A stretch of 64,000 nucleotides of DNA from Candidatus Omnitrophota bacterium (GTDB lineage Bacteria > Omnitrophota > Gorgyraeia > JAUYCX01). Positions 14,546-64,000 of the stretch are shown piece after piece. The position numbers were made by a program, and so were the translations under genes. Location: positions 25,688-89,687 of the forward strand of contig JAUYCX010000119.1 of assembly GCA_030692045.1 (NCBI GenBank), read 5' to 3'. Each line of letters begins with the position of its first letter. Positions within the stretch are counted from its first letter, which is position 1. The notes under the pieces are model-generated. The model saw only the letters and a list, made by a program, of their open reading frames with translations, had not been told where the DNA came from and did no database searches.

Positions 14546-14557
14546 AGAGGTATTGGA

Positions 14558-16758: not shown

Positions 16759-16810
16759 AGAGAGGTTAATCGTTGAAGGGTTGCGTAGCTAGAAAGGTTG
16801 AATATATGTT

Positions 16811-16951: not shown

Positions 16952-17004
16952 AACCTTGTTGCCACATAATTCAACACTCTCATTGACGAAAGACGAGAAA
17001 TAAT

Positions 17005-17853: not shown

Positions 17854-18110
17854 GTGAGGACATAAGTTATGGAGACATATATTAATAAAAATCTTAACGA
17901 CATAACTTATAAGTCCGAACTTATCCCGACGAATATGTCAAAATTATCGAAGAGAATTTTGACATGGTTTATGAGTCGGGATACAATTGATAACATTTGC
18001 CCATTGCGTAAACATCCCAAAAATCTCTACGATATTTTTGGGATACGCTATGGGGTTAATTCGCGCAAACAACTTATGTCACTTTCGTTCCATAAGTTGT
18101 GCGCTCATTA
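17847..18110. repeat. Non-coding MITE-like insertion with imperfect inverted ends between tadB and tadC
   Basis: Left end AAGTGAGGACATAAGTTATGG versus right-side ACAACTTATGTCACTT and CCATAAGTTGTGCGCTCATTA; the left 25 bp are identical to 11006-11030. Confidence 0.5.
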
Positions 18111-18112
18111 AT

Positions 18113-18982
18113 ATGATAATCCTTATTACATTATTAATTTTTATGGCTGTATTTCTTCTGGTGTACTTTATTCTCTCTAAAGGCAAAACTGCTGATATTA
18201 AACCGCCTACACTTCCCTTGGAAAAGGAGATAAGTTTTGAAAAGAAAGGGTTTATGCGTAATTTATTTTCTCACATTTCACTAATTAATAAACCCTTGGC
18301 TGGAGCATTTAGGTATGGCTTATCACGCAAATTATATTCGGCAAAAATAAAGATTTCCATAGAGGAATTTTTCCTAATTAAGGAATTACTAATTATAACT
18401 TTACTTGTTTTATTTTTACCAATGATAAAACAACTTAGCCCGATTTTTTATTTAGTGCCAATTATTGTGGGCTTTTTTCTGCCGGATATCTGGTTAATTA
18501 TGAAAATAAAGGCAATTAAGCAAGAGCTCGTAAAAAATTTGCCAGATGCCATTGACTTATTGAACTTGTGCGTAAATGCCGGCTTAGATTTTATGTTAGC
18601 CCTAAAATGGGTGATTGATAAATCCCCTGCCAATGCCTTAATTGATGAATTAAATTTGGTGATGCAGGAGATTAATTTAGGCCGTCCCAGAAAGGATACC
18701 TTAATTGATTTAGCCAAAAGATATGATATTGCAGAGTTATCTACATTTAGCCGCACCTTGGTTCAGGCAGACAGGATGGGCACCTCAGTAGCCGAGGCAT
18801 TGAATATACTCTCTGAGGATATGCGCTTGAGTAGATTTCGTCTGGGAGAGCAGATGGCTTTAAAGGCGCCCATAAAATTACTTTTTCCGCTTTTGGTTTT
18901 TATTTTTCCAGTGGTAGGGATTATTATTGGCGCGCCGATTATTTTACAATTTTTGCAGACAAAGACATTTAGCGCGTTTTAG
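18113..18982 (+). CDS. tadC: Tad inner-membrane platform protein TadC (start re-assigned from 17987)
   Basis: LPDAIDLLNLCVNAGLDF...EINLGRPRKDTL...QADRMGTSVAEAL...KAPIKLLFPLLVFIFP. Confidence 0.9.
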   Translation: MIILITLLIFMAVFLLVYFILSKGKTADIKPPTLPLEKEISFEKKGFMRNLFSHISLINKPLAGAFRYGLSRKLYSAKIKISIEEFFLIKELLIITLLVLFLPMIKQLSPIFYLVPIIVGFFLPDIWLIMKIKAIKQELVKNLPDAIDLLNLCVNAGLDFMLALKWVIDKSPANALIDELNLVMQEINLGRPRKDTLIDLAKRYDIAELSTFSRTLVQADRMGTSVAEALNILSEDMRLSRFRLGEQMALKAPIKLLFPLLVFIFPVVGIIIGAPIILQFLQTKTFSAF

Positions 18983-37200: not shown

Positions 37201-40200
37201 TGGATTATCTGGCGAATTGCGCGTCAAACGAATTTCCAATAATGAATTGTTACCACTTGAAGCTATTAAGGCAATGGATGGGGCCAGAGCCTCTCGACGA
37301 ATTCGAGCCGATGGCAAAGAGGTGGCAGTTCTTTATCGTGTCATTAGAGGAGATGAAGAAACTCTTAAAACATTACAGCATCAAGGCCTATTTTCTCCCG
37401 GTTTAGTGGCCTTTAATGGCGACAGACAGAGACTCTATGAACAATTGAATGAACGTTTTATAGGAGGATTAAGAGACCTTGACATTTCCGATCTTCTGGA
37501 TCTTAGATGGGACTCTGCTATTATAGGAGACCAGCATAATACTATCATAACCCCGCTTATGTCGTTTACAGCAGATCCATATCGTACCAGGTCTTTCGGA
37601 ACATATAATCCAGGAGATAAACCCATTCAACGTTTCATTGTTGAGTTAGAGGTTCCCGTTGATCGAATCATTGAGCTAAAAGAGGAGAAAAGAAGTCGCT
37701 CTCTCACACATATCCGCAACGCGATTAGAAAACTTTCTTCCAACCATCAGTATTTATTCGTCCGTGCGCCTGACCAATACGAGAGTGAATATACCTCTTT
37801 GACGGAGCATATCCCAGCAGAATATATCACAGGAATATATGTGGATACATTACCGCCATCCGTCGCCGCTCAGGCAATAAAGGCAGAAGAACTTGCCCGG
37901 CCTCCCACAACGCCACCAGCCGCGCAATCTCAACCAACACCGCAAGCTGTGTCACAAGATGATCTGGAAAAGTTTATTGAGAATATGTCGCCAGAGCAGG
38001 TTAAAGCGGCTTTCTCTGATATTATTCCAGCTCCTAAACTTCGAGAAGCAATAGCCAAGCCTTCTCAAAGAATGGATATTTTCTTAAGGCATCTTACACA
38101 TAATCAGATTGCCGTCAAAGCAATGGGTGGCAGAGCCCCTGGCGAAATTTCTGCAGTATTGCCAGTTTCAGAGGTGCAGAGCATTCTTTCTCAAAAAGGC
38201 TCTGCACATTTAAGCAATGAAGAAGCAAAAACTTTGCTTGAGGCATTTGTGAGTGCTGATAGCCATCAATTAAAGGCAAGAATTTTAAGAAGTTTAATCA
38301 GAGCTAACTCAATCATCTCATTTGAAAAATTGCCAGCAGAAAATAGGCACGCCTTACGAATGGAATTCGTTAGGACTTTTAAACAAACCTCAGATGATGA
38401 TTTAAGAGGGATGGTCATAGACTATTTTGTCAGAACACATACTGGTCTTCTAAAACAACAGTTAAGAGCGCAACAACAGTTGGAGCGCTTAAGCGATGAA
38501 GAACTATTGCAGTCTGCAAAGATAGCCTTACACAAATCTTTATTGAGTTTAGATGAATCTACTGTTGAATTTAGCTTAATGCATTGGCTTAATCGAGTTA
38601 GAAATGAATTACGCGCCGAAAGAGATAATAGATTACTTCGCACAAATAAGAGTCGAGAAAATTCAGGATTGGGAAAATTGAGAATTGAGTCTCTCGATGA
38701 CCTAATGCATGTTGACGATGAACGAATTTTAGCTGATGTTATTGCAGATACAAAAGCTATCCCACCAGATGAGCAAGTTAAGATAGCCTCTGAACAGGCA
38801 CGCCTTAGAGCTTTAGTTGCTGCAATACCCAATGCCCAAGAACGCTTGGTCTTAGGTTTTCGTTTAGGTATTTATGGAAGACTGACACTTAGAGCAATGG
38901 CAGAGATTGCCGGTGTCTCATACGAACGCATCAGGCAGATAGAAAAAAGCGCAGAACAAAGGCTAAGGAAATTAAAACTTGCTGATAATGTCTCTAAGGA
39001 GCCCATTGACGCTGGGGAGATTTCCCATCCCATTCAGGCGCTTAAAGATGCTTTTGCACCAGCAAGAGAAATAGCTAATAATAACCGAAAAATTCAAGAG
39101 AATTTTAGCCAAGAATTTGAAACGCGTTTAACTAAAGCACGATGGTATGAGCAAAGATTTAGAGAAGAGCCAACAATACCTACTCTTCATAAATTAACTG
39201 GAATTTCTATCTCGACCCTGCGTGACCATAAACCTGAAGTTGAACAGGTTATTAAAAGATTATTTGAATCTCCCGAAGGTGCAGAAGTTGTAGTAAACAA
39301 GAGAAAACAAGTTTTACCAGATATTCGCTTACTAAGCTTATTAAAAGATGACAAACAACGATTAGTATGGGGGCTACATTTTGGTTATTATACTAAAGAC
39401 AGAAAGACTATGCCGCTAAGGACTATTGCAAAAATAGCCGGAGTCTCAGAAGCAAGAATAAGAGAGATAGATAAAAAGGCAGGAGAAAAGTTGGCAAGAC
39501 TAAACAGGCTATATGAGATAGCTCCAGAGCTTTACTCAGGTATGGCCCCAGAGGTTTTCTTAGATGTAGAGCCTATCGAGGTCGTTAGAGAAGTTTTTGC
39601 CCCTGAAAGAGAACGTGCTTTTCCCAACATATTAAGAACTCGTTTAACTGAGGCAATAACTGAGGCAATACGGAATCAAACCATATCTTCATCAGTTGTT
39701 CTTACAATACCTACTCTCAATAAATTAACGGGAATTCCTATAAATACACTACGTAACCATCCCGAAGTTGTTAAGGAAGTATTAGACAAATTTGGTTTGC
39801 AGGTAAGAGTAAGAACGTATAAAAAAGAATCACCCAAAGTTTATGACTTAGCCGCAGGTCTGGCTTTGCCGGTTTTAATCCCTGGGGCAGGTATTTTTAT
39901 CTTGGCTGGACTATCAGCTGGAGGATTAGGATACTTGGCTTATAAAGCAGTTAAGAGCGCTCAGGCAAAAAAGGCAGAAAGACTTGCCCGGGCGCCCACA
40001 ACGCCACCAGTCGCGCAATCTCAACCAACACCGCAAGCGCCGGCTGTTCAAGCGCCCGCGCCGCCAAAAGATTTTAGCGGTAGTGATTTTGGACAATATA
40101 CTTCTGACATAACTGATCGCGGTCGTTTAAAGATTATAGATGATTACATTCTAAAGCAATTATCCCAAAATCCATTAGGAAACAAGCCTTTAATTATAGA

Positions 40201-43200
40201 TGTTGGCATTGGCGCCAGGGCTTTAGGAGATGCTTCCGGAGTTCCTTCGCCTACTTTCTTTGAATTAGCTGAACGGTTAAGAGAAAGATTTGGTGCCGAC
40301 GGCTTTACGCTCGTGGGTATTGATAATAATGATTCTATTGTGCAGGAAGCCAATAAGCATATCGCAAAAATGAGGCAGGATGATTCTAATTTTCCTACAA
40401 ATATCCAAGTTATCCACGGAAGTTTCTCCACCGCTGCCCAGCAGTTTAAGGGCAAGGCTGATTTAATTCGCAGTATGGCAGTACTCCATTACTATGATGC
40501 TAATACGCGCAATCAATTCCGTTCCTATCTATCCGAAGCGCTTAAGGAAGGAGGTAAATTTATAGAGGGAGGTTTTAATTACTCTATAGTTCACGAAAAA
40601 GATAAGTCGAGGTTGACACCAAAAACATTAAATGTAAATTTAGAGGACCATAGGATTTCTGGTTATGTTGTTGGGATTATCCCTGATGCCCCTCAATCTT
40701 TAATGCCTTTATTAGAAGAAATTTCTAGAGCAAGAAGTAGCTTTAGTTCTTCACTCCCTGTAACCTCACCGATGTCCAATCGTGAAGTCGCCATAAAAGT
40801 AGCGCCTGACGTAGCTCAAAGTTTAACTTATGACAGGTATATGGTTAGTAATCCTTTACCTGGTTTCCTTTCTTTTAATTTGGATGATACAGGCGAACTG
40901 CAGCAATCAAGCCGCCTAGATGCAAAAGCCTATTTTATTCATACAGAATTACAAAACGAATTTAAACCTGCTGATTTTAGAGCTTATACGCAGAATTTAC
41001 TCACAGCAGCACCTTTAAAAGAGCGAATCAATGAAATGGTAAGAGCTAGAGCAGATCAATTCTATCCAAATGAAGTTACTTTCGAACTTCTTTTCTCCAG
41101 AGTTGATAAGTTTATTAGAGATAGTGCAGCTGAAGCAATAGCGCCACCGCCTATTGCACCGCTGGCTGCCCCTGTGCAAACTGCCTCTCCTTCTCCACAA
41201 ACCGCCAAACCCCAAAAACCCACAGGCACAAATGTGGAAATGCTCGGTTTGCAAACCTTGTATGAATGGTTAGCCTATTATACAAAATTAGCTATTAAGA
41301 GCGCTCAGGCAAAAAAGGCAGAAAAACTTGCTCGGGCGCCCACAACTGAAGCAAAAGAAAACACGCCCCCATTCTTCGATCCAAATGTAAATTATACCCG
41401 GCCGCTCCCAAATATTAATGAAGTAATATCATCTTTCATGAGTGACCTTATATTTAATCAATCTCTGGAATTAAAGCTTAAATTCTTAGATTTATTATTC
41501 CCAAGAGATAGAAAAGAAATGGCTAAATTTTTTACACGAGCCCTATTAGTAAGCGGAGAAACACATGGCGGATTCGCTTCTGCGCAATTTAACAATCGAG
41601 GCGTTACCTTAGCCGAGTCAGGAGACTTTGAATCAGCTGTCCGCGATTTCAAACGCGCTATCAGCGCTGACCCTACCAATACTCTGGCTTATCGTAATTT
41701 AGCAAAGTTATTGCTTAGACAAGGAAAGGCCTTTGAGGCATCACGGGCTTTTGTTAAATCATTCCCTCAGCCCCCTGAGTCACGTAGAGTAAAAGCAGAA
41801 AAAATTGTTTATCTAAACGGCAGAGACTTGGCTTTGCTCTTAGGTTTAGCAGGATTATTTGCTTCATCGCCAGCTAAAGCTCAGACAGGTAGCGTGGGTG
41901 ATAATATCGTGGAGGGCATTGACCAAGTAATTTCTCAATGGCTGCCAAATCATGCAGATTTTGTGTTATGGGCTGGAGCAACCTCAATAGTTCTTAGCTC
42001 AATTGCCATATTTAGTTTTGTGGCTTGGCGGTTTAGAAAATCCGCTGGCCTTAAGTTTTATCTAACCACACCTGCAGGAAAAATTGATTGGAAAGCAACC
42101 ACCAGCGCAATTATCATTGTTCTGGGCAGTATCCCACTTGCGGGCTTAAGTATTGGCGCTGTCAAAACAGCACTTGAGGCTCAAACATTTTCTCCAGAGG
42201 CAAAGGCTTCTGCTGCAGAAATATTGGGTCTAATAGGAGCGGTTTTGCCTTTAATAACTGTTGGCTGGATTGCCATTGATAAAATCTGGAATAAGACCTT
42301 AAATATGATTCGAGGAGATTCTCAACCTTCTAAGCGGCCAAAATCCGGTTGGGGAAAGAATTTACTCATTCTTGCAGGTTTGGCAGGTCTTTTTGGCTCA
42401 AGCCAGCCGCCAGCAAAAGCAGGCACAACACCTGATACTTCTCCAGCGCCGAGGGCTAAAACAGAAGAGATAATTTACCCGACTCAAAATATTGATATTG
42501 CAAAGGCTCTTACCGACTTCTCTTCAATGCTGATTAGTTTAAATGATTCAGGCGCGCTTACACCTGAGCAAATGGCATTATTAGAGGAATATAATAATAC
42601 TACTATTAATTCAGTTCCTGAAGTAAGAATTTTGCTTGAGCAGATTAATTCTCGCTTAAGTTCAGCTTCTGCAAAGGTAGATACAGTTTTTGTGAATTTG
42701 GATAAAACAACCGTAAGGGACCTTAAACTTGGTATGAAGGTGGCATTTACAACCAGGTTAAACGGTAAGCAGATTGGAGATCCTCAGACAGGAACAATTA
42801 GAGAAATCAAAAGAGGCCCACCTATTGGAGAATTCCGGAATCGAAGCGTAGAAATTACTGTTGAAACAGATCCTTATGAAAAGGAATTTAACTTTGATGG
42901 TTTAAAATTTAAAGCAAAAATGCCTTCATTTGAATTACCCTTCACTGCTCCTCCAAACCAAACCCTAAGACAAGCTGGTTTTGACAAAGTCTATGAAATT
43001 ATAACTCCGGTCCAGCCAGCACCGGTTGATTCAACTCTACCTGTCTTGCCTGATTCTCTTGACAGCAGAATTAAGAAATTAAATATAGAAGAATTCAATC
43101 TGCTTTTGCAGGTTGCTCCTTCACCAGTAAAAGAATATTTATTTAGGGTGCAAGAAGCACAGATGAAAGGAATGATTGGTTTGGTTAATTGGTTGGAATT

Positions 43201-46200
43201 ATCAGCCAGCAGTAATGGCTTAACTTTACCTTCTTTTGAGCAAGCCGAAGAAAAGAGGCAAGTTATAATGTTAGCACTTAGGCACCAAGAACTTGAGCCC
43301 ATACGAACAGAAACTTTAAATAGAGCCTTAGAATACATTAGAGATAACTTTACTGAATTTTACAGATTTGTAATGGCTAATTTAGATGCGTTAGAGTTAG
43401 ATCATAATGGTAAGAATGATTTCTATTATCGTATAGGTGAAAGAGGCAAGGTGTATTATCCTGAGGCAACTTTAGGTCAAAGGCCTGCAGTTATCGCAGC
43501 TAGATTATTCCATGAAGTTATACACAGCTATTTCGATAGAATATATGGGGAAAATTCAGCAATTGGGCCTTGGGGTGAATATAGCGCAGACCTCTTACAG
43601 GATATGGTTGCGAAGTATGAAAGCAGGCTCCAAGGTGAAAAGGATTATTTCTCGGTTAAGAGATTAGAGCCTGAATCAAGGTTTCATTGGGGACCCTCGT
43701 TTGATGCCTGGATGACTGCGAATGCAGATAGTTTATCTAAAGTCTGGCCAGAGTCTGTGCGTGTCAGGTTAGCTCAGATACATTCTGAAAGAGCGTTATT
43801 AGAACAGATGTCAAAGTTAGGTACAGATACCCAAAAACAGCGTCCGCCTGAGCCGCTAAAGCCAATTGAACAAAAGAAAGCTAAACAGCAATCGCCAACT
43901 GATATTCCGAGTGGCTCACAGAAGGGTCAATCTAAGCCATCAGATGAGAGTGCTTTGCCGGCGCCTGAGCCTTTTGGCTTGCCAGTTGCACCCATAAATC
44001 TATTACTTATTATTCCTCTATTCTTAAGCAGCACAGGCAAAGGTCTAAAGACAGTGTTTGGCATACGAGAAGCATTTGCTCAATCAGCGCCTTCAGAAAA
44101 TAATCTGGCTGAAATTAATCATTCTAAGCAAGCTCAAAATAACATTGGAATTGGAATTGGACCTCGAGGTCCCACCATAAGAATGCAAGCCGGCATTCTC
44201 GCAATGCCGCGCCTTGCAACAACAGAAGCGCGAGAAAATATCACAGATTACACAGATTCTCTCTGTGAACAATCTGGTAACACAGATTACACAGATGTTG
44301 TAGGTAATCAAGGCCAAGTAAGATTGCCAGTGCTTTTGGCAATAGTGGGTTTAGGCTTAGCTGTAAATGCCATAGGCTTAATACCGGCAGTAATAATTGC
44401 CATAGCAGTATTAGGATTTATCTTAATTAAGGCCAGAGTTACCGAAGGTGCCACAGGTTCTGAAACTACATCTAACAGAACTGGTGCATCTACAAGTGCA
44501 ACTGGTTCTAAGGGTGCATCAACAGGTGCAACATCTAAAGCAGAAACCACAACTGCTAATACTAATGGCTCTGGTTCTCAAAAGGGTCAGACAGTAAATA
44601 AACCTTCATTCAGCGAAAGATTAAGAGTAATTAAAGCTCAAGCAATTCGCAGAATAAAGGATTTTGTTGTTTATCGTGCTAGAGCTCCAACGGCGCTTGC
44701 TCATAGACTTGTTTCTTCTGCAATTGTCATTCCTGAACACAAAGACCTCGCAATTCCTTCCTTAAATAGATTCAAAGGCAATAATCCTACAATTCTTGGC
44801 CGGCTTTTAGGCTTTATCTTCAATGATTTAGCGCACATTATAAACGGAGAATTGAATTGGGAGCGTTGTATTTTGAAAGCTGGTAAAGCCGGCGGCAAGT
44901 TAGCTGTGGTTATTTATCCTACCTATGACCACGATGGAAGCTTTAATCCCGGTGAGTTAGAAAGGTTGGTCAAAGAGTTAGCAACCAAAGGTTACCGTGT
45001 AATAGGCGCGCGTGTCAGTTCGGTAAATGAGCTTATTAACGCGGTCTTGAATTTTACACAACAAGAAGCTGCTTCATTGTTATTCATAGGCGGACACGGA
45101 AGTCAATATTCTATTCAATTAGGAGCAGAGCTTCCTCTTGTTGAAGATAGCAATAAGTTGACGATATATAATCTACACCTTCTTTCTTTAGCGAGAAAAA
45201 GCTTAGCTAATAATGGCGTTATTGTTCTTACGTCTTGCAAAACTGGAAAAGGAGGGGTTGGTGGGTTCAACATAGCCAATGAGGTTGCAAAGGTATTCTC
45301 ACAGGCAAAGCATATTTTTGCGCCTGAAGAATCACCGTATGGTGCTGTTACTTGCGAATTGATATTTGATGACAATAGTGATGTTATGGGAGTTAAGTAT
45401 GATTACCTTGGCTCTGTTAAAGATTATTATGATGCAATAACCAATAGAAACTCAGAACCCGATTTAATTCAAAGAAGAGAAAGAATTCACAGCCTACTCC
45501 CCTATATTAGAGAAATAATTGCTCCAGCGGTGATTATTATGGTTATAGCTTTATTCTTTGGCGTTTCGCCTGTTTTGGCAGGTCCCGTAGTTGCCGGCGC
45601 AACAGTTGTAGTTGGTAAAGGTGTTTTAATAGTAGCATTGAAAATGGTTTTAGCAGTTGCAGTGGGTCTGGCTATTGCCAGAATGTTTAGCAAAGGCGCA
45701 CATTCCGTGGCAGTGCGTTCAATAAAAGGTCTGGCTGGTCGTTTTGGCACCCCCTCCGCCAAAACCGACCGCCAGGCCTCTTTTAGAAGGCTACCTTCAC
45801 TAAAATCTATAACTAATATAGTTCTATTCTTAATGGCATTATTCTTGGTGCTTCCTGCAGTGCAGACAGTTCTGCATGAATTAGGACATGCCATTGTCTA
45901 CATGCTCATCGGCTTTTCACCACATCTCTATATGGGCAATGACCTTAAATCTTTGATTTCTTTAGGAAATTATTTTCAATTTAATATTCAGGAGCCTTTT
46001 GAGTGGCTGGGCAAATTGCTGGATACACGCGGAGCTGTAACTGCGCCAATTGATATAAATGCTTCCCAAGAAGCTGTATTGCAAATAATGGAAAAAATGA
46101 AGCATCAGCCCAAATTCGTTTTGTTCTTACTTAATATCTCAGGAAGTTTGCTTAGGGCATTGGTTATCTCACCCATTCTTTATTTCTCATTTAAATTGGC

Positions 46201-49200
46201 ATTCCCGCTTAGGTTAGATGAATATGAAAGTTTTAGAAATGACTTAACTGAAACGGCCTTAGAAAAATTAAGAAGATGGGTTATGTTTGTTCCGTTGATA
46301 ATAGGTTCAACAGTGATACTCATTTCAGAGGGAGCATATGTGTTTGTGGTAGGAGATAAAAATTCTGATTGGGTGCAGGCTGCACAAATTTCAGGCCTGC
46401 CACGTGCATTGATAGGCTTAATTATCTTACTGCCGCTTGTTACACTTGTTGCTTACGACATTATCAAATTTGTTAGAGAGGAAATTAAACAGAATAAAAT
46501 TATTGCTCAGTTTGAAAAAGGCGAAGAAAAGGGAGGTGCAAAATGGTTAAGATTAATTTACAGGAACTGGAATTTGACCACTTGGTTGAATTCAGCAAAG
46601 ACCGCACAATCTTTGCGGCAGCTCGCCAGAACGGTAGCGGCCACATTAGGCTCTTTCTTGTATTCCAAGACAATGGCAATGTCTACACCAGAAATGGCAC
46701 AGCAGACAGCTGGGAACAGCTCTTTGGCCAAGATGCTGAAATTGTTAGTGGCAAAATTACTCTCGCTCTTAACAACCATATCCCGGTTTACAAAGTCAAC
46801 GGCTCGCACGCTTAAAGAGAGTAAGCGAGCCGTTGACTCTTCTCGCGTTATTGAACTTACAATTGTAGCTCTATCGCCATTCCTTGTAGGGTTTAGCCAA
46901 GGAACAATCATTGCCGTTGTAATTCCTCTTGTGGCTACTTTCGCACTTTTACTCTATCTTAAACATCGTGCTGGTATGTTACCTTCCACAATCGCCCTTA
47001 TCTTAGGTGTTGGTATTGGGGTATCATTATGGCCGTTATTGTCTATCGTTATTAAATCACAACAGCCGATTCTTTCTCAGATAGCACAATTAGGATTAGC
47101 TTTATCCATTTTGGGTACTATCTTAAATGGATGGAGATTAAGACAATTAAGCAACCTCTCAATTTCTAAACTTATCGCGCCTTATAGTAATGATGAAGAC
47201 CAAACAACACTGCGCCAGCAATTCAAGTCTAACAACCTCTTCCAATATTATGCCAATGCTGTGATAATTGCAGCAGTTTCTATGGTCAGTAGCGTGATGC
47301 TTTTGTTAGTTAATTTACATAACCTCAGTGCGCAGTCATTAACTGCGCAAGGTTTAATCTTGGCCAAGATTGGTTTTGCGATGACAGTTGTGTCTTTGGT
47401 TATGGGCAATATTATTTTCCATAGAGCCGCAATAAGACATCAACAAGGATTAGTCACTACCGGCCTCTATTCTAAGGTAAGACATCCGATTTATTTAGCT
47501 TGGCTGGCGGGAATTTTAGGTATAGTGATGATGTTTCCCAATATTTACTCAGGTTTGTTCTTTGTAACCTTCCTAATTACAGCCAAGACAGAAGCCGTTA
47601 AAGAAAACATTGGTTTGTGGCTTGAGTATGGTCAAGAATATGCTCAATACACCCATAAAGTTCCTGCCTTAGAGCTGAGAGTTTTGAGGTTAGTGAAGAG
47701 AATACTGCCGTTTGTGATTATTGCAAGTGTTATTTTTGCCAACCCTGCCTTGTCAGCGCCAATGATAGATGTATCCCATTCCAACATCTGGGATATCTTA
47801 GGACCGATTAGCATATTGGTTTTCTTGGTGACTATGGCAAATGACCCGCCAAATGATGAGCGAAAGCCACGACGAGAATTTGGAACGAAGGATGTGCAGG
47901 ATCGTTTTCCAGACCTTGTTTCTGCTCGAACAATCGTCTTTAAGTGGAGGGCCCTTTACAAACTTGATTATGATGAAATCTGCTCTATTCTTGAGTTCAT
48001 TCAAGGTAACTTAGGGTGGTGGGAGCAGTTGGCGCACTCCGAGCCAATGAGTGGCACGCCATATAAACAAATCAAAGGTTTTCCAGCTATGGCCAGGGCT
48101 TATGAGAAAGTGGACCGAAGCTTTCAGATATTGCGAGGGCTCATCGAAGTCGTGCAGGAGGCCGTAAAGGAAGTTGAGGAACAGGTGGGATTCAAGAGCC
48201 TACCTCAGTCTTGGCGGTTTACTATGTTAGCGCTAGCTGCGAAAACATTGGATGAAAAACACAGTCTGGACGCTGTTCGGGATCATCTGACTGATGAGTA
48301 TATTAGGCGATTCGAGGAACGCAGTGAGAGCAGAGGTCAAAGGCTATGGAGCCATCCCATTGTGACCTTGGTTGCTGCCTTAATTACTCTCGCCTTGATG
48401 TACCCAACATCAGGTGCGGGCGTTGCAACAATAAGCGCAAATGGTTTGCCAGCGTTTATTACTAAAGTTGTGGTTATTTTAGGTATTCTAATGCCTTTTG
48501 GCCTCATTTTAAATAATAGGCCAGAAGAAAATAGATGGATAAGCGAGATAAAGCAAAGAATTGCTGAAATTGCCCAGAGACATCCTCGACAAGTAAAAGG
48601 TTTGGTAGCTTTTGTGGTTATATTCTTTTTGGAAAAATATTTGAGGCAAGGTATCGCAGAAAAAGTCGCAGCTGAAATCCAGGGTAGTCATAGACTAAGG
48701 GATTTAGAGACATTTCAACAGATACAGGGAGAATTCATAGAATATTTACAATCACATTCAGCAAGTCTATTGACCGCAATGGGTATTTCAATGTTTATAG
48801 ATGAAATTCAGAGAGACTTAATGGCTCTTAGAATATTAGCCGATAGCATAATTAATGAGGCATTGGCAAGAGATGTATCACTGCAGGGTCAATTAAGAGT
48901 TTTATCTGAGTTAACATTAAGGCATCTACAATCACCTTCCAATCCAAGAATACAACGAATAAATAGAAGCGCTTGGCGTATTGAAGTCGAAATAGCCAAG
49001 ACGCTGGGAATTTCTGAATGGTTATTTAGAGAAGGATGGGGGAGGGATTATGGCATTGAGCCAAGAAATGAGCCTCCTGCTGGACCTCAAGCTGGCGCAG
49101 TGCGGCACATAGTTGTGTTTCCTTTGATTGCTGTAGTGGGACTGGCAGGATTGTTGTTGACTGCAAGCGCAACTGTTGTTGGCACAGTGTTGCTTAGCGT

Positions 49201-52200
49201 TGCAGTGATTACAGCTCTTACGCTGGATTGGTTAAGGGACAGTCCCTATAAGTTACATAGAAGAGGGACTGTCCCCAAACTCTGGTCAGGCAAGGTTAGT
49301 CCTGCCCAAGCGCCGCCAACCCCTATTTCTCGCAAACCCTCACCTCTTGATCCTCGCTATGCTGAATTAGAAAACTACCCTCCAGAAATACTTCGCAATA
49401 TTGTCTTAAATGTATCTACAACAGAACCAGAAAAACCGCACCGCGTCAAAGGATTACTCTCCAGAATAAAGAAAATTTTCTTTATTGGTATATTATTACT
49501 AATTAATCTCTTTGCCGCAACAGCTCAAGGCGCGCAATTCTCAATGGATGCAACTGGTAACTTGTCTGTGCGAGTTGAATCAGGCGATACATTTGGAGGA
49601 ATAGTTCCAAAGATTAGAGGTACTCAACAGGTGGTTGCGCCTGAACAACGTCTTCCTTTATTTGTCGGCTCACTTTGGGGTCAAGATGGTGTTGTACAAA
49701 AGGTTTATGGAGAAATTAAACAGTCTAATCCGGATTTTGTGGATATAGATAAGATTCGTCCGGGACAAATAATATATTTACCCTTAGATTTGCCAGAATC
49801 TGTTAAACAAGCACTTGCTCCGCAACTTATGGAAGCTCTACCCACAGTTTTGGTAGCCGCTTCAAAGCCTGATTCATCAAAGGTTAAACCAGAAGCAGTT
49901 GCTGTTGCTTTGCTTGACACAGTTAAGATTGGCGCTACGGTTAAAGTGGTTCCAGATGCCCTTACCTATCCATCTAAAGTTAATCCTCCATCAGCACAGC
50001 ACATTAATTTAGCAATGGCTCTAATTGTAGGCGTGGGTCTTATCTTAGGAATTGCCATTGCCCAGTCTTTAAAATCCAGAATTTCCCGAGAAAAACCTGA
50101 GTTTATGAACATAGCTCCTGCGCCTATTAGCGCTACACATACAAGTGAACCAGCAGTTGCCACAATAGAAGAAGTACCAGCAGAAGCAAAGGCAGAAGCA
50201 GAGAGTGTGAGCATACAACCTTGGCCGACTGAATATGTTCCAGCTGTGGCGCCAGTTAATGCTGATGTTTTGCGTAGAATAAAAGAAGCCTTAGATTCTC
50301 CAGACACCAGATATTTAGAGCGCATTCGCGATGTAGAATGGCTCATTGATGATTTAAAGGCAATGCAGCAATTACTTGCGCCCGAGGATATTGAAGAATT
50401 AACACAATTATTAGAAAGATGTTTAAAAGATGATAGGCCGGGTTTAAAGATGTTAGCAATCGCTACTATTTTGAATTTGGGTTTACGGGCGACTAAAGAA
50501 GAAGCTGTCGAATTCTTAAATCACCACAAGAGAGAGTTATTGCCTCAGGTGAGAAAATTAGAAGCAGAAAGTAAAGTTTATCTGGAAAAAGCCCAGGCCT
50601 TTAGAAAACAAGCAGAGACAATTAAGGGGTTGGATGAATTAGATAAAGCCCGAACCGCCCAAGTAAGATTTGAGGAATTGATGTTTATTGCCGGCTGGAT
50701 AGGAACAGCTTTGGAAAAGATTGCTTTAGCAGAAGTTGCTTCAGAGGTTACTACAACAATGACTGCGGACTTAAGGCAAAACCCCTCCAATGACCTTAAG
50801 TCCGCAGAAGCAAATAAGCCAGGAGTTGAAGGCTTTACAACAATAGAAGTTAGCTTTGCATTGGCAATCTTGACAGCTGTTTATTTAATCAATCCTGTTT
50901 TGGGATTAGGTTTAGGCGCTGTTATGGTAGTTGCGGCTTTGGCAGCTAACAGAAGAACAGGCCTTAGGCGAAGTCGAAGCATTACCGCATTAGTGGGAGC
51001 TTTGGTAATATTATTATCTTCCCTTAATATTCAGGGTTGTGCCATGATGAAGCTTGGTAACACAACCCATCCAGACTATTCAACCGCAAAAGTGGATAGA
51101 GCTCTCTATGAACATCGTGGAGAAAACCCAGAAAACAATGCAACGCACCCTGATACAACTTCAAGCCAGCCAGTAGCTTTAGAAACTGAAATTAAACCTG
51201 TTAAGAGAACAGAAGTAGGGACGTCTTTGACGACCATCGGAAGGGTGTCCCCTGCAAAAGAAGTTAGGGACAGCCTTAGCTTGAGAGAGAAAGACGTCCC
51301 TACTTCAAACCAAGAAAAAACTGCACAGCCAATTAGAGCACCGCCAGTTAAACAAGATAATCCGTCGCCTCAAACTCAATACATAGTCAAAAAAGGTGAT
51401 ACACTTTGGAGAATTGTTGGTGCACAATGGCCAACAGTTTACAATGCCAATCCAGAAATCCAGAATCGTCCCGGCGAACAATTGGGTCCTCAATATCCTG
51501 ACACAAAACAAATCGTAATTATTTATCCAGATGAAATTTTAACACAGATTACACAGATTGAAACTACAGATTACACAGATACTGCAACCGCAAGGGACGC
51601 AAAAGAAAAAACAGAAGAAACCGCGGAAGCCGCAAAAGCTCGAGAAGACTCACTTAAAGCTGAAAAGGCAAAACAACAAGCGCAAGCCCAAGCCAAAGCT
51701 GAGCAAGCCGAAAAAGAGAGACAACATGCACAAGCCGCAAAAGCAAAACAAGATTCAGTTGAGACTGCAAGAATTATAGCCGCCAGACAAGATTCTTTAG
51801 AGGCTGCTAGAATGGCTGCACAGGAAACAGCTCAAGCCAAGGCTGATTCATTAGAAGCTATAAGAAGAGGACAACAATTTGATTTCTTAAAAAAGATTAA
51901 GCTTGCGTTATCTTCAGCTTTTGGTTTTAATCCCATATTTTTATGGGGCAGTTTATTTGTCCTTGCTTTAGCTTTAGTAGCTTATCGTATGCGAATGAAG
52001 AATGAGGCAAATGGCATAGCTGTTAACTCTGCTCCTAAACCTGCATCCAGAAGAAGAGTAAAAATTGATGCCTCCAGCGACCCAGTTAGTCCAGCTGTAG
52101 TCAAGCCACAACCAGCACGCAGAGCCACAAGACCCCAGTCTCGAAAATCTGCATCTAAGAAATTGCATCAACTGTTTAAACACAAAACCCTTGCTTATCA

Positions 52201-55200
52201 ATTAAAAAGCTTAGCTTTAGATTTAACTCCTTTTGCCTGGTTTGTCTTGGCTAAGTCAGCCAATATAGAACATTCTTGGTTAGCTTTGCCAATTATTGGT
52301 CTAATAAGATTTTTGGTTGTGTTTAATATGGTGACCAGCCACGAATCTGCGCACGCCAGTCAAGCTCTTGAGTATGGTGATACTACAGCAGATAGAATTA
52401 GCAGAAATCCTTTTACTCATCTGTATTGGAGATCCCGCGATGGCTTACCTGCCTTCTACAAAGTATTTTCCTTTATGGGCTCTACATCAATGCTTATTAC
52501 CTCTGTAATATTTGGCTTGCCTTTGGGTTTTGGTTCAGCCAGGCCAGTAGTATTTAATTCTAAACCAGATTATCAGGTAAGAAAGATAAAATTTGCTGGT
52601 CCAAAAATCAATTTAATTCGGGGACTTGTGGCTCTCGCTTTAGGCGCGCTGGCAGTAAAACTTGGCTTAGCTTATCAGGAATATTACATTCCAGTTTTAC
52701 AATACATCGCAATATTAGAGCTTATATATGCAGTGTTTAATTTAATACCTTTGCCTCCTGCTGACGGAGCTGTAGCGCTTTTTGGTAAAAGGGTTAATCA
52801 ATCATTAAACATTGGTGGTATGAATATTCCTGCCAATACCTGGGGTATTGCTGGATTAATTATTCTTTTGAAAACAGGAATTTTATTTAAGCTTTTTGCC
52901 GGCATTTTATTATTGGTAAATTATTTTATGCCCGCAGAGGCAGGATTATCCAGTTTAACCGATGGACTTATCAAGGCATCAATCATCACTTATATATTAG
53001 CTCATGCAGGGATGTTGGTAAAAGGAATTGCAGAACAGAAATCAGGGACGTCTTTGAAGAGCATCGGAAGGCTGTCCCTTTCAAGAGGTGTAGGGGACAG
53101 CCTTAGCTTGAGCGTGAAAGACGTCCCTAATTCAATGCTCAGGCAGCAGGCAGCTGTAAAGAAATTGTTGCTGTTAGCAGTTACAGGCTCTTTGATGTTA
53201 ATTGCTCAGCCAGCTTGGGCTGACACAAATCCTGGCTCGTGGAGCACTGGAGAAAATATTCTTGCCTTTGGGGGTATTTTGCTTGTGGCTCATCTGGTTT
53301 TGCGTTTCATTGTGAGCCTGATTGCCAAATTCAAACCCAGATTTACTCAAAAACATTTATTTACAATTCTCTTGCCATTTATGTTAGCGGTTAATCTCAA
53401 TTTGTCTTGGTCGCTAAGGCATCTTAATACGTTCTTTAGTTATTATTTCGCAAACCTTACTGATGCGGCGCTGGTGGCTAATGTTATTTTGGCTATTCGT
53501 GAAATGACTTCCAAACGATTATTGAAGCCAAGCACGCTGGTTAAATTCATTGGTTTGATATGGGTTGGTTCTATCATTTTTGAAGTAAGTTCAGGCTTAC
53601 AAAACTGGCTGGCACTTCACTTGATGGATAAAGAAATAAGACTTGTTTTCGGCCAAGGAGATATCGTAGCTTATGGCGCAGGTTTGTTATGGTTCTTACT
53701 GCATAGTTTACGCCAGCGTGCAGTAATTAATGCTAAGGTTCAAACTGTAAATAGAAGAACTTCCTCTTTTGTAAGACCAAGACAAAGCTCTCGTCGAGAC
53801 TTTGCTAAAGAGCTAAGAAACAATTTACCTTTTGGGCTAATGGTTCTCTTTGGCTTGGGTGTTTTGGCTACAACCTATTTATTTAATCCCACATTAATAT
53901 CTACCTTGGGCTTGGGTTTGATTTTTGGTTTAAGCAAAACAGATAGTGGTTCGCAGGATGAACATCACCACAGAGAATTAAAAGAGGCAAACGAATGGGT
54001 TGAAGAAGCGCGTCAGCATAGAAAGAAAAAAGAATATCAGGGTGCCATGGAATCTTATGAAATTGCAATAGAGCTTTATGGAATTGTAGCCAGTGGTTCT
54101 ATTGTGCCTACTGTTCAAGAGACTGCCCGTGGTAATTTAGCCCATGCTCGTAGAGAACTCCAGTCAGTTTTAGCCCAGATTGAACAGGCAATGTTAGATT
54201 TCATTGCTGATAAATTTGCTTATGCCAAAGCGCAGAAGGGCATTCGTGATTATGCTGCATTTAAGAGAGATTTAGAAGAAGAGCTTCTGAAAAAGGAGCC
54301 TGAAGGATTAGAAGCAATTTCTCAAAAAAGAAAACAGTCTATTTATAATAGCTCAGAAAGAATTAGACAAAGGTTAAGCCAAATCAGAGCGCCCGGCGTA
54401 TCCACAGAAGTGATACCGCGCAGGGTAGTTTATCAAATAAGAAAAGCATACTTTAATGAACTTTATGATGGCATTCACGCTGGGATAAAATCAATTTTCG
54501 TTCCCTTAGGGCAGAGAAGTTACTCTATTTCTGGTATGCTTTTTGATATTTTGGGAAGGAGAATTCCTGATAACGAAAGCGCCTTAAAAGCCTTATTTAA
54601 TGATGTTAACTTTAAGGATTCTATGGGTAAAACTCACCGTGCATTAGCTCGTCGGCTTAGGAAATTTGAAAGAGGAGAATTAGAAAAAAGCAAGGCAGTT
54701 CTTTACGATATTGCGGCATTAATCATTCGCGCAAATACTCGATTAGTTGAGGCATATCAGGGATTAGTTCCTGATTATGAATTGCCAGAAGTTGAGACAG
54801 TTAAGAAAGCGCCTAAGCCTACAGAGGAAGTTGTCATTCCTGATGCAGAGATAAGAGAGATTATTTTAGAGGCAATAGAAGAACTTTACAAGCTAAGAAG
54901 TAACTATGCAGAATATAGACTTTTCTATGAAGAGATTATCAGAGTAGTTAGTCAAGCTTTAGAACAAAGAGGGGTGTCTGAGGCAGGCAAACAAGTTCAA
55001 AGAGTAATTTCTCGCTCAAAGCCTATTAAAAAACGTTTAGCCCAGATAGAGCGTGAATTCTTAAGGCCAGCAAGAACAGAAGCAGTTGGGGGATTTGTAG
55101 ATTATTATGCAATTTTAGGCGTGGAAAAAGGTCCTTTAGCTAATTCCAGAGAGATTAATCGAGCCTTTGATGGTTTACCCAAAGACAGAAAAACTGAGCA

Positions 55201-58200
55201 AGCCTACAACGCCTGGAAGGCCTTACATGACCTTATAAAATCTAAACAGCAACCATCAGATAGACTTTCACCCAAACAAGCATATGACGAAGAATGGTAC
55301 ATCTTGCACCGTGAAACACACTTATCTTGGGCAAAGAAGGTTGATGCTAAATTAGGCACACACTATCTTGACAAAATTAGACCTCATAGAGTCAGAAGAC
55401 ATTTAGGCTTGATTGTACCTTTCTTATTGGCAACAGGATTGTTGGCGTTGTCAGTAGACAGAGTCTTTGGCGCAACAGAGAATTCTAATGGAATTTTTGA
55501 AATCAATTCCAATCTGATAACGCTCTCTATCGCGGTTATCATAGGCGTTGTGTTGATAGACCAACTTTCTAAGTTAATCATCAGGCTGAATTTGTCAGAG
55601 ATTATATGTGAAGATGAAGGGGATACGTATGTTCCTTACACAAATAAATCCCAACCATTTTCTAAGGCTATCATTCCAGGCGTATTGGACTTGGTGAATA
55701 TTAGGCATGCCAGAGAGAAGCTTTCAACTCAATTATCGCTCATGAGTTTATTATTAAGAATATTGATATTGGCCGGACTTTCATCTGCCATAGTGTGTGT
55801 TATTCAAGGCAATGGTAGAAAAGCCATTGTAGTTGGGCTTAGCTTAATGATAGGGGCAGCAATAAATGTATTATTTGACGATCTTAGAACTAAACCTCAA
55901 GGCTCAACAGATTGGATTCTGTTATTCGAGTCGCCGCTCTTTACTAATCTCTCTGATATTTTTGTAGATGCGAGTATAGCCTTAATCACAGTATCCCTTG
56001 TTGGCGTTGAACTTCTTTTTCCATCTTTTAAACCGCTACTCAACAATAACAGCTTCGTTGCCATTGCTACTGCTGGCTCAATTTTCGCAGCATTGGCATT
56101 TACTATTGGCAAGGCCCGATATTATTACTTCTTGGTGAATAGTCACAAAGAAACGGTCGTAATCGATGAGGCATTTTCCAGAATCTTGCGTTTCTTAGGC
56201 AAGGGCGGCAAGGCGCTTCGTATTTTGATTCCGTTTATCTTTATGACAATTGCCTCTGTCGGCAGGGCATTGGCTGGAACAGGTAATGCTATATCAACTC
56301 ATCCTTGGATATGGCTTTTAGTTGTAGCAGCTTTTGCTATTGTGGCTGGAGTTTATCCAAGAAATTCAAAAGCTAAACAAAGAGCTGATAGGACACCTAT
56401 TAAGCCACATGCGCCACCGCTTATTAGAAGACTAAGACAGTTGCCTATTGTCTTATTAGTTCTCTTACAATTAGCAACCGCACCTTTAATCTATATCAAC
56501 TTTACAAGGGATGTTTTTGCAGAGCAATCCCAAAACACAACCACAATTCTTGTTAGAGGTCCACCGGCATTAGTTAAGACAGAAGCGGGTTACTTGTTTG
56601 TTTCCCAAGAGGGTAAACCATCCTTACCTTTGGGTGGCGCTGCTTGGTTACTTAGCATTTGGCCGCTTTTGGTAGGGATAGCAATAGTTTTAATTCCATT
56701 ATTATACAGAACAGGAATTATTGTAAGAATAGTTAATGCCACCAAAACAAAGGCACAGGTTAAAGTTGCACCAGTAAGGGCAGGACCAGAAAATAAAATC
56801 GAGGAAGTTCACAAAGACAGTCCTGCAAGCTCACCCTCCGCACAAGCTGCATTTCTCGAGAGAGGTTCCTACCTTAAGTTAATCGAAAGATTGGCAGATA
56901 CCAGTGATGTGTCGCAAGCCACTCTTATGCAGGCATATTTAGACGCCAGAAAAGAACTCTATGAAGCCATTCAGTCAGAAGATGCAAAGTTAAGACAACA
57001 GGCGTTAGATATTTTTAGCTTAGTACATCAAGCATTAGAGATTTCTACTGTATCCAATGTTAGCCTACGGTGGGTTCATACCTTAAATAGATTTCAATTT
57101 GTGCATTGTAATATCTGCGGTTCGGAAGCTCATCTTCCCATCAGTGTATTCTTTATCAATGGTGTGGGTTTTGATATTGATCGATGTCAAAATTGTGGAT
57201 TATTCTTCGTTAATCCTCAGCCTTCAGATAGATTTTATACTGAGCTATACAGTGAAGAATATTTTACTTCAGGCGACGGTCAGGTCGGCTTTAATGGTTA
57301 TGAACACTCCAGAAGAACTACTATCGCGCGCCTACAATTAGATACGTTACAGCGATACGCGGAAAGAATCAGAGATTTCCTTGAGGTAGGAGGTGCTACG
57401 GGTTATGTATTAAGAGAAGCAAGAAATCGAGGTTGGAAGACCAAGGCGGTGGAAATTTCTGATTATTGTGCGGGTAAACTCAGAGAACAGGGTTTTGACG
57501 TCTATCAAGGTAATTTAGAGGAAGCTGGATATTCAGATGAAAGTTTTGATGCAATGGCTGGCTTTGACTTGTTAGAACATGTGCGCAACCCGTTTGCTTT
57601 CTTGAAAGAGGCAAATCGTATTTTAAGAAACGGTGGTCATATTATTCTGAGGGTTCCTCGCGTCCCTGACACTACTAAAGGACCAACTGTCCATTTAATT
57701 GATCATCTTTATCACTTTACGCCGGATAGTATTATTAAGTTATTGGAGCGTGCTGGCTTTGAAGTGGTAAATGTAGAAGATAGTGGCGCTTTCTATTCAG
57801 AAGAAGGCGTAGGCTTAAATTTAACAGTGGTGGCTTATAAACTTGACCCAGTTGGTTCTAAGCCAAAGATAAATGCAGTTAATTTACGCACAAATAGAGG
57901 CAGTTCCAATATTCATTATTTACTCGCCTCTGTTTTGACTCTGCCATTTTTGTTCTTACTAAATCGTTATATCTTTTACACAGCAGTTAATAATTTATTA
58001 TCACATAATCTCCTCGGTATACTTTCTTCGATACTTAATTTAGGCTTTTTCTACGTTCTGCTCTTCACAGCTACTTATAATATTATTACTACAATTTTGA
58101 TCCTCTTTGATTCAAGAACAAAAGGCTGGTTGAGTGAATCTAAATACGCCACCGCTATTCCCAAGTTTAAGCCCGAAGGTATGCCTTATCCAAGCCACAC

Positions 58201-61200
58201 AGTTATGGTGCCAGTCTATAAAGAAGATTGGGCAACTGTAAGAGAGACCTTGGATGCTGCCTTGGCAGCTACAACTAACTATAATCGGGTTGCCGGGGAA
58301 GGAAGAGGTAATATTGTTGTTTGTGATGACGGGCTGATGGTAATGACAAATAATCATCCTTTTGAGTTTATTGAGAGAGTAAAGGCAAAAAGAGTTGTAG
58401 GACTTGCTCTTACGCAGGTAGAACAGGAAGTTTTAAATCGGATTGAGTATTACCAGGCAAACAATATTACATGCGTGGCCAGACCAAAGCACCAGCCCGG
58501 TATATTTGAAAGAGCCGGACAATTTAAGAAAGGGACCAACTTAAATCACACTCATCTATTAGCTGATTTAATCGATGAATCAATGAATAGGGGTCTAAGC
58601 TATGCAGATGCGCTGGAAGAAGCACGCAATAATCCAGAATACAAAAACACCTTCATTATGGGCCAAGTGAACTTAGGAGAAGTAATGCTATTCCTCGATA
58701 AAGATTCCTTGATTGGCTCAGATATTATCAGAAAAGTTATGTCTGAATTCTTATTAGATACCCGTATCGCTGGTGTCGTAATAAGAGGCGCTGCCATTAA
58801 TGAGAATGAGAATGTTTTTACCTCTATTTATGGACAGGGAATGAAAGTATTCTTCTGGCCATTGACGAGATTATGGGCTAAATATGGAGCGAGCTTGTTT
58901 TATGGTAAAGGGTTCTTCAGGAGAGATGTATTAAGGAGGATAGGATATTGGCCATATAAGCAGGTTGCAGAAGACATGGTTGCATCTTTTGGCGCCATAA
59001 CGCTTAAAGATGAAGCCAGAGGAGAGAATTATTACTTTAAGTTTGTGGATTATCCAATGGAAGCGCTCAAAGAAGGTATACCCAATCGACCGGTGTCTGC
59101 AATTATTCAATTCCGTAAATTTACCTATGCTTCGCTTAATGCGGTTTTTCGTCCTCTAAAAGAGTGGTTACTGCATAGCCCATTCCAAAGAGTATTTATA
59201 GATCTCTTAAAAGATAAAGGAGTACGCTGGGAGCAGAAAATTCATATTCTTTATACATTTAGCTATTACTTGAACTCTCTATTTATCATTGGTGTTTTCT
59301 TTAAGCACCTTATCTTCTCATCGCTTTTGGGTATTCATTCCAATCATACTTGGCATTTGTTGTTTGGAATATTTGTAGGTTCTATACCATTTACTACCAT
59401 TACCATCGCTTCTTACATTAAAGCCTGGAGAGTGAATAGAGAGACATTCTCATCGGTTAAATTTATCGGAAGAATTATACCTCGCGCATTACTTGTTTAC
59501 TTTGCGTTAATCGTATTCTTCTTAGGAATGGGTTTCCATACCTTTACTTCTGCAAGTAACTACTTGGTATTTAATAAAAAAGTTATCTTTGGAACTACGC
59601 CTACAGATAAAGAAGATTTTCGTCCAGTTAGAGAGATTGCGTCCGATATTGCAAGACAGCTTAAGCCAGGACTTATTACAAGTTTAATTTATTTGGTCTT
59701 GGCTATCGTAGCCCTTGGTTTGGGCCGCTTCAATGCCACCGAGCTGTACTTGGTAGTTCCTGGCTTATTGAGCAGCGTCTCAGCGATTATCGCACCTTTT
59801 GCTTTTGATGCGCAATTGATGAGGAAGATACGTCAGGAAATAAAGAGTAGTGTTTCAAATTTACTCGGTAAGATATCTGATCGATTCGGTAGATTTAGAC
59901 TTGGACTTAGATGGAGACCTGGCGTTGAAATTAGCCCACAGCCAGTAATGGTGACAGAAAATTTATGTTTCAGGCCCAGAGTTATAATGAGAAGTCAAAA
60001 GGTAACGCCTATAATAAGGACTATTCTGTTTACGATACTGCTTAATCTTCTTCCTGCGAATGGCCGTTTTGTTACCCTAGCCGAAGAGCAAAATGTAATA
60101 GTTGTAGTAATGCCAACGCCGCAGTTGACAGAGCTAAAAACAATTGATACTAATGCAGCTTATCAGTGGATTAAATCCCAAATTCATCCTAAAACAGGAC
60201 TGGTAAGGTCATTTGAAAATCTTCCCAAGGAAGACCCATCTTTTGGCGTAACCTGGACGTATAATCAGGCGCAAGCTATACAAGCTGCGCTTGCCCAAGG
60301 CGATGTTAGAACTGCCGAGCGCTTAGCTAAAGCAGCATTGAGATTAAAGAAGAATAATGGCGCTTGGTTTGGCGCATATGTCACAGAAACCGCTGAAGTA
60401 GCCACAGCTCTTCCAGAACAAAAGACCAGCGCAGTTGGATTTAATCTGGCTATGGGACATTCTCTGTTAAATCTTTTAGAAAAGACAGAAGATAAAGACT
60501 TAGCCGCACAAATTATCAGCGCTGTTATGGATTTAGCAGGGTGGTTAAATTATTATTATCGTGATGAAGGTAAGTATGCATTTGTCACTAACGCAGAGAA
60601 TAATAATGGCGTGCGCACAGAATTTAATGAGCGCACCTTTGCCTTCTATTATCAGCTGTATAACCAGTTTAATAACAGGCAACATCCTTATAGGGCATAT
60701 TTAAAGGAAGCGATAAAGGTAAAACAAGCCCGGGAATTAAAGACAAGAGCAGATAAGATTGTCAAATGGCATCAAGAGAAGATGTACAACCAAGAAAAAG
60801 GCCGTTATGAAGCTGGATATAAAGATGCCGATAGTAAAGAACTCATTGAAGAACTTATCGCAAATCTTCCTAAAGATGACCCGCGATACTGGGCAAGAGA
60901 TATGTGGGGCTATCCGCAATACTTAGCTCCAATTATGGCATCTGTGGCAGGGCTTAATCCCCAAGATTTTGCCGGCGGACTGGATTGGCTCTTAGCCCAT
61001 CAATCTACCGTTGAAATTGACGGCAAAACCTATAAAGGTTTCCCGCGCTGGTTAGGCACTCCTTCTTTATGGGGTAAAGGCATATCAGAAGCAACTGTGG
61101 CTTTGCAATTAGTTGGACGCAACAAAGAAGCAGAAGAATTGTTATTGACATTATCTGCAATGCAGCAGGAAAATGGCAGTATCTTAGAGGCAGTAGGTGA

Positions 61201-64000: not shown

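Follow-up and report, generated by a model that had tools for sequence, protein, structure and literature searches.

The giant open reading frame described here, from the genome of a tiny groundwater bacterium of the Omnitrophota, probably encodes a polyprotein that is threaded through the membrane by the Sec system and cut by LepB and Lgt/LspA. The part of the frame considered in most of what follows, the span, is 41820-62290 of the window, the window being the whole 64,000-nucleotide stretch of DNA analysed. As far as sequence can tell, the strongest evidence for internal export signals is their conservation in front of homologous modules, and this evidence appears strong. A sequence-only reading of the same DNA had proposed one translation product punctuated by internal export signals of four classes; conservation, the context of Cys residues, topology and the absence of internal starts favor the single product with internal signals, but "four classes" was an overstatement.

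The giant frame and its genome

The span belongs to a single frame, which begins at 19244 and comprises at least 18,015 codons. The frame, its upstream neighborhood and the enzymatic and Ig-like domains found in it are as follows (all on the + strand).

3012..18982, +: Tad/T2SS-type locus upstream of the giant (ATPase, TadE/G-like gene, two T2SSF genes)
19244..64000, +: giant ORF that continues past the window, 18,015 aa up to the point where contig C51 ends
19331, +: ordinary N-terminal signal-like helix of the giant ORF
19826..20077, +: peptidase C39-like domain, residues 195-278 (PF03412, E 6.9e-10)
47360..47569, +: ICMT-like membrane methyltransferase domain (domain search)
55538..55999, +: predicted LspA-like (Signal peptidase II) domain inside the giant, divergent (35 bits, above cut-off)
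57299..57772, +: SAM methyltransferase domain, preceded by a C-in helix (cytoplasmic side)
58688..59314, +: GT2 glycosyltransferase domain, preceded by a C-in helix (cytoplasmic side)
62321..62941, +: pair of bacterial Ig-like domains (Big_5, Pfam)

The C39-like domain carries a Cys, a His and an acidic residue at what we take to be the expected motif positions. RamC N-terminal domain and sigma-70 region 4 repeats are also seen inside the giant (window 36026-36274 and 38831-38971). Further open pieces of 14,198, 5,502 and 5,012 aa lie at contig ends of the same genome (C52, C97 and C76), and its giant pieces total 42,641 aa, with exact overlap between C97 and C76 alone. One public-run contig, possibly the DNA's own source, matches 41500-61400 without differences. 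The bin, with 7.5% contamination, holds two 16S genes of very different score (C17, C79) and two tatC genes (C14, C95).

The ORF is a member of the published class of Omnitrophota giant proteins. With Archaeovorin-type giants it shares an N-terminal signal with a C39 domain near it, many helices, GT, methyltransferase, glycosidase and peptidase modules, and an upstream T2SS/Tad locus; the accessible text on these giants also lists SecA-like and NUDIX domains and downstream pilZ genes (bioRxiv 10.1101/2023.11.21.568195; 10.64898/2026.06.07.730766; PMC10066038) and gives a length criterion of >90 kb or 30,000 aa, against 18,015 aa here in a frame open at the contig end. The N-terminal 310 residues of the giant have matches in 30 of 60 relatives, several of them within frames of >9,000 aa. 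In P0088 (Candidatus Omnitrophica) the signal and domain start are identical to those of the G248 match, and G248 belongs to the same class as the present genome; this places the host in Omnitrophota indirectly.

Predicted export signals in the span

Helices and cleavage sites were evaluated with a purpose-made helix detector, rules and a matrix in place of SignalP and DeepTMHMM, the matrix being derived from 151 N-termini of this genome and noisy. Good geometry was taken as 2-5 K/R, then a hydrophobic core of 10-21 residues, with the cut 17-23 residues from the core start. Every one of the 17 motifs named in the sequence-only reading is present in the giant frame where that reading had placed it. 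Among its 12 SPI-like sites the geometry is good in nine (41881, 42421, 45580, 47755, 49531, 53221, 55471, 56275 and 60082) and borderline in 56521 (VFA↓E; 27 residues, 2 charges), but two do not hold up, and signal-peptide geometry is likewise present in both lipoboxes (Cys 51038 and 62285). The sites are listed below, with ↓ marking the predicted cut.

41828..41881, +: SPI-like signal AKA↓Q; good geometry, paralogous to 42362..42421
42362..42421, +: SPI-like signal AKA↓G; good geometry, then a 521-residue helix-free segment
45515..45580, +: SPI-like signal VLA↓G; long core, another hydrophobic stretch directly after
47702..47755, +: SPI-like signal ALS↓A; C-in helix 13 residues on
49475..49531, +: SPI-like signal AQG↓A; best-supported site of the span
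50981..51040, +: lipobox 1, IQG↓C; basic stretch, core and Cys
53165..53221, +: SPI-like signal AWA↓D; C-in helix 12 residues on
55403..55471, +: SPI-like signal VFG↓A; directly upstream of the predicted LspA-like domain
56222..56275, +: SPI-like signal ALA↓G; C-in helix 10 residues on
56441..56521, +: borderline SPI-like signal VFA↓E
60023..60082, +: SPI-like signal TLA↓E; upstream of the glycosidase-fold domain
62150..62287, +: C-in stop-transfer helix, basic loop and lipobox 2 (FTG↓C)

The two sites that are not credible as signals are 44080, where 18 polar residues separate the site from a helix of opposite orientation, and 61390, where the helix detector finds no hydrophobic core. Weakly hydrophobic motifs ending AQA↓EE, paralogous to each other, follow both glycosidase-fold domains (window 61319-61400; G000:C51 ~89750-89810) and could be shedding sites.

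Conservation of signals before homologous modules

For two of the signals, homologues of the module behind them were compared; these modules and a second LysM domain are the following.

49532..49813, +: LysM-like module (Atlas score 0.89, a lead-level assignment), closed by a C-in helix at 50003
51380..51553, +: second LysM domain, weakly matched in Pfam; the C-in helix that closes it is at 51935
60131..61303, +: (alpha/alpha)6-barrel glycosidase-fold domain (predicted fold, pLDDT 92), with a paralogue after the Ig domains

A query made of the LysM-like module after 49531 together with its signal matched 13 of 400 genomes of the class, from which G094 and G234 were dropped as another family that the profile did not recover; a signal-like segment stands in register in 10 of the remaining 11, the exception being G192. 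The profile of the mature part alone, with the signal left out, also matched 13 of 400 genomes and adds two, both with a signal, so that an internal signal with its -3 and -1 residues in exact register is found in 12 of 13 genomes in total. These signals lie 80 to >1,400 residues inside their frames. Two fairly short proteins, P0088 (941 aa) and P0084 (1,950 aa), have this internal signal too. In 11 that were aligned, K/R gather at -23/-22, the core extends from -19 to -7, position -2 is mostly polar, -1 is A in eight and G in three, and -3 is A in nine, V in one and S in one; the 17 residues before -3 show a mean identity of 13%. A fitting segment occurs by chance at 87 of 3056 positions (2.8%), a figure to be read with the homologues being kin and not independent. 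No stand-alone donor of the LysM-like module was seen, all 14 matches being in frames of at least 817 aa.

The glycosidase-fold domain after 60082 matched 119 of 400 genomes, mostly as a stand-alone gene of ~650 aa. That gene, present in many genomes of the class (L043, L044-L064), consists of PilZ, a helix, a coiled coil and the glycosidase-fold domain. Among the seven best matches outside this stand-alone family, six have a signal directly upstream as judged by eye, namely two RR-type signals with an SPI-like end, two RR-type signals with a lipobox and two plain lipoboxes; G330 has none. An RR-type signal also precedes the domain in P0002 (Pfam TAT_signal, below cut-off), and none does in P0001. 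Such a swap of signal class at a fixed place argues for signal function. By the sequence-only reading, a lack of conservation of the sites in homologues would have spoken against it; for these two modules the conservation is strong (LysM-like 12/13 genomes, glycosidase-fold 6/7). Look-alikes of lipobox 1 with similar first mature residues occur in the giants of G047 and G008.

Bulk statistics of helices and cleavage motifs

Bulk enrichment of cleavage motifs in the giants is modest. Within the span, 7 of 26 N-in helices are followed by a strict AxA motif, where shuffles give 2.5 (p 0.005); the corresponding figures are 13 of 212 for internal N-in helices of ordinary proteins and 0 of 20 for the span's C-in helices. 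The difference is not significant when the orientation filter is removed (7/74 vs 5.8 in shuffles) or the cleavage rule is loosened (10/26 vs 8.2). The strict rule is insensitive, since the N-terminal control set gave just 6 of 105. The proposal that internal sites score above background helices held in part: by our matrix the N-in helices of the span exceed ordinary internal ones (p 3e-4; medians 4.3 and 1.9, with 3.8 for N-terminal helices), but they do not exceed shuffles (7 vs 4.5).

In a set of 14 genomes with 362,883 aa of giants the strict motif was found at 13 of 61 in the own giant against 6.6 shuffled, at 11 of 188 in ordinary proteins against 10.6, and in the giants of the 13 other genomes at 25 of 178 against 21.2, which is not significant. 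Lipoboxes per helix are not enriched (6/260 in giants, 10/516 in ordinary proteins). The giants are poor in Cys (0.3% vs 1.3%), and a Cys after an N-in helix is preceded by G, A or S in 14 of 19 cases in giants as against 8 of 33 in ordinary proteins (p 7e-4); for a Cys behind a C-in helix this holds in 1 of 13. By a rule set after seeing the data, a site is present on 19 of 45 N-in helices that precede segments of at least 80 residues in giants, compared with 1 of 14 in ordinary proteins and 8 of 56 C-in helices. In an all-against-all test that paired helices with downstream homologues, hydrophobic strands inside domains swamped the outcome, and the test is kept out of the support.

Prepilin-like, Tat-like and CTERM-like motifs

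Only the SPI and lipobox classes are supported in the span, because the prepilin and Tat sites fail their tests. The genome encodes both TatC and a prepilin peptidase. The prepilin-like pattern is at background (30 of 1080 giant helices vs 32 of 1567 ordinary ones; in strict form 2/1080 vs 2/1567). The Tat consensus is RRxFL. The proposed Tat-like site at 53789 lacks the consensus Leu and a cleavage motif and has behind it a hairpin that is paralogous to the one at 50849. The "CTERM-like" anchor is internal, no NCBIfam model matched within 59744-62743, and the stretch reads as a plain stop-transfer helix.

50828..50941, +: G↓FxxxE-like motif and two-helix hairpin; prepilin reading unsupported
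53789..53932, +: RR motif and hairpin; Tat reading unsupported

As prepilin candidates, 50831 fits G↓FxxxE but has a two-helix hairpin behind it instead of a single h-region and ectodomain, and 44312 lacks Glu+5.

Elsewhere RRxF-type motifs are in excess: giants of the 13 other genomes hold 12 against 2.1 expected, six with a core behind, and there are none in the own giant or in 484,290 ordinary internal residues. Tat routing of internal RR-type signals is nevertheless doubtful because TatC was found in just three of seven genomes that have them (4/10 of all genomes searched).

Topology, internal starts and peptidases

Flanking charge is in keeping with the expectation that outward and inward domains would sort by topology; the side of the membrane is here assigned by the positive-inside rule, for modules after the first 6,800 residues. 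Ahead of each of five outward-type domains the helix is N-in and carries a site. These domains are the two of LysM type, the glycosidase-fold domain, the Ig pair and peptidoglycan-binding repeats, the last beyond the window. Ahead of the methyltransferase and GT2 domains the helices are C-in. LepB, LspA and Lgt are encoded in the genome.

As a set, the internal signals show no excess of translation starts. An ATG with a Shine-Dalgarno sequence precedes 1 of 45 against 1.7 at random, and any start with a Shine-Dalgarno sequence 5 of 45 against 3.8, which is no enrichment; at ordinary N-terminal signals a Shine-Dalgarno sequence is present in 82 of 172.

Arrest-type and linker motifs

The tetrapeptides RAPP, RGPP and RAGP are arrest cores that are strongly excluded from bacterial proteomes, being ~10x rarer than AAPP and AGPP (PMC12992588, in which Omnitrophota and giants are absent). 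They occur 47 times, in 41 clusters, in 363,000 aa of giants and twice in 596,000 ordinary aa, an enrichment that is new here. By motif, in the order given, the counts are 7/4/2 in the own giant pieces (42,641 aa), 20/4/10 in giants of 13 other genomes (320,295 aa; RAPP against 2.6 expected, no significant excess for RGPP); ordinary proteins give 1/0/1 in 595,830 residues. Neither AAPP nor AGPP occurs in the giants of any of the 14 genomes, so the effect is Arg-specific; RAPT is not enriched in giants of other genomes (3 vs 5.5 expected). Twelve of the 47 lie 15-45 residues past a helix as against 9% at local random positions, with bins chosen afterwards. Those of the span are listed below.

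42812..42823, +: RGPP arrest-type motif
51335..51346, +: RAPP arrest-type motif, just upstream of the second LysM domain
56555..56788, +: RGPP (56555) and RAGP (56777), 27 and 24 residues past a helix end

A linker motif, SSP, is present 25-135 times in the giants of G008, G047, G192 and G325 (loci L003-L007, L072-L083). Across giants of other genomes it is found 282 times against 55.9 expected, with both TCN and AGY codons, and in the own giant it is not enriched (6 vs 8.1). A helix follows SSP within 30 residues in 16% against 7%, a difference that G325 alone drives, and several RR-type signals lie within ~25 residues after SSP. A reading of RAP-like and SSP motifs as DNA elements was rejected, since their codons vary.

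Antisense and foreign inserts

An intact-looking DUF433 + DUF5615 toxin-antitoxin pair lies on the minus strand just beyond the window (L114:1156-1753; G000:C51 ~90155-90752), and the giant frame stays open through it, with near-identical 28-base repeats on both sides. A second pair of this type, ~40-55% identical, is antisense in another giant piece, on the minus strand just after an RAGP motif (G000:C97 ~2600-3200). Window 46550-46910 reads like an off-frame or antisense insert; it has no family match in Pfam and NCBIfam scans, and a 1.3-kb public-run contig matches both ends in register. The four minus-strand ORFs of the span have no Pfam match. When the antisense segments of all giants were compared with ordinary proteins of at least 100 aa from the present genome, none was among the matches listed. 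Most of the hits in a separate search among protein representatives were repeat proteins of 76 residues.

A processing model and its alternatives

In the polyprotein model a single ribosome would translate the whole frame, internal starts being absent at the sequence level. Short N-in helices resembling signal peptides would reopen the Sec channel so that the next module (LysM-like, Ig, glycosidase-fold or peptidoglycan-binding) goes outward, and C-in helices would halt transfer and, by the positive-inside rule, return the methyltransferase and GT2 modules to the cytoplasm. LepB would cut AxA sites, and Lgt/LspA would lipidate and cut lipoboxes, to give type I membrane proteins and lipoproteins, each signal presumably staying behind as a C-terminal anchor on the preceding product, as in flaviviral polyproteins. 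Cutting is expected at only a subset of the sites first proposed. RAPP, RGPP and RAGP may in addition pause the ribosome until the pull of the translocon releases it, a weaker part of the model suggested by their enrichment. Against the polyprotein reading stand the LysM-like module of G192 and the glycosidase-fold modules of G330 and P0001, which have no signal, and simple threading does not explain P0002, where a receiver domain comes after the glycosidase-fold domain and no helix is seen between them.

That the giant is uncut, or cut only elsewhere, and that its signal-like helices are uncleaved anchors, relics of captured secreted-protein genes that now set topology, is a rather unlikely alternative. 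It would agree with the weak bulk AxA enrichment beyond this genome, with RR-type signals in genomes where TatC was not found and with the uptake of foreign DNA by giants, including whole antisense gene pairs; however, an uncleaved anchor has no need for an A or G at -1 and a small residue at -3 that hold their register as the sequence of the helix diverges, nor for the near-constant lipobox context of Cys in proteins that are poor in it, and none of the 14 matches of the LysM-like module is the stand-alone donor that capture would call for. Translation of the modules from internal start codons, which would make the giant an operon without stops and the signals true N-termini, is highly improbable: for 2 of the 17 motifs first proposed, a start codon preceded by a Shine-Dalgarno-like word is present within 20 codons, but starts are at the random level given above and far from that of ordinary N-terminal signals, Met is missing from the 45 residues ahead of the domain in 6 of 11 LysM-like homologues, and the ends of the upstream products would be left unexplained.

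A two-step scheme, which we regard as unlikely and slightly less probable than uncleaved anchors, is compatible with later signal-peptidase cutting. Here a dedicated protease (the C39 or an S8 domain) would cut lineage-specific linkers, SSP in several giants and perhaps R[AG]P[PT] in this one, to free N-terminal signals. The SSP excess in other giants with both Ser codon families and the RR-type signals shortly past SSP are in keeping with it, and Tat export and the layout of P0002 would require such cuts. The absence of SSP enrichment in the own giant, the dependence of the helix-after-SSP excess on one genome, and the position of the C39 domain after an N-terminal signal-like helix, by which it may face outward, speak against it. 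Autoproteolysis by C39/S8 is proposed in the accessible text of West-Roberts 2023 (bioRxiv 10.1101/2023.11.21.568195), which suggests cleavage of giants into products and gives the cut points as unknown.

Relation to known systems and significance

Glycoprotein polyproteins of flaviviruses and bunyaviruses share with the polyprotein model one frame, alternating internal signal and stop-transfer helices and use of a host peptidase. The giant differs in lying on a bacterial chromosome, in being at least 5x longer, in having lipoprotein-type sites and in modules that vary between lineages, and its cleavage is predicted. A bacterial two-protein chain split at an internal signal sequence is known in FbcH of Bradyrhizobium japonicum, the cytochrome b-c1 precursor; FbcH has one site and two products, whereas the giant has ~10 sites in 20 kb for a predicted two peptidase classes. 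The arrest peptides ApdA, ApdP and SecM (PMC12992588) resemble the giants' motifs in their Arg-specific four-residue cores, some of which in giants lie 15-45 residues past a helix. The known peptides, however, end small leader proteins, with the core close to the C-terminus, and control the expression of a gene downstream, whereas a giant has many such motifs inside a single frame; arrest depends on upstream context and is here putative.

Internal signals, lipoboxes and arrest motifs, present here, are not described in the accessible text of the Archaeovorin-type papers. The corresponding text of the 2026 Omnitrophota preprint (10.64898/2026.06.07.730766) overwrites internal signal calls as chunking artefacts and contains neither "cleav" nor "lipobox", and that of PMC10066038 and PMC11573180 adds no cleavage sites. 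A literature search limited to main texts open without subscription found nothing on internal signals or arrest motifs in Omnitrophota giants. The gene class is known, and the processing account with these signals is new and testable; it names both sites and enzymes and offers a conserved module for testing.

In a broader and tentative reading, which we hold to be possible but doubtful, Omnitrophota giants would be operons written as one protein. Internal signals of the Sec and lipoprotein types, helices that stop transfer, arrest motifs that sense force and linker cuts particular to each lineage would together allow one ribosome to make dozens of proteins, whether secreted, lipid-anchored or in the membrane, with their order and ratio fixed; any in-frame DNA, even antisense gene pairs, would be tolerated between modules. 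If the processing account is true, the published whole-protein topology classes need revision, the most avoided tetrapeptides of bacterial proteomes would be used on purpose within one gene, and the largest bacterial "proteins" would be polyproteins.
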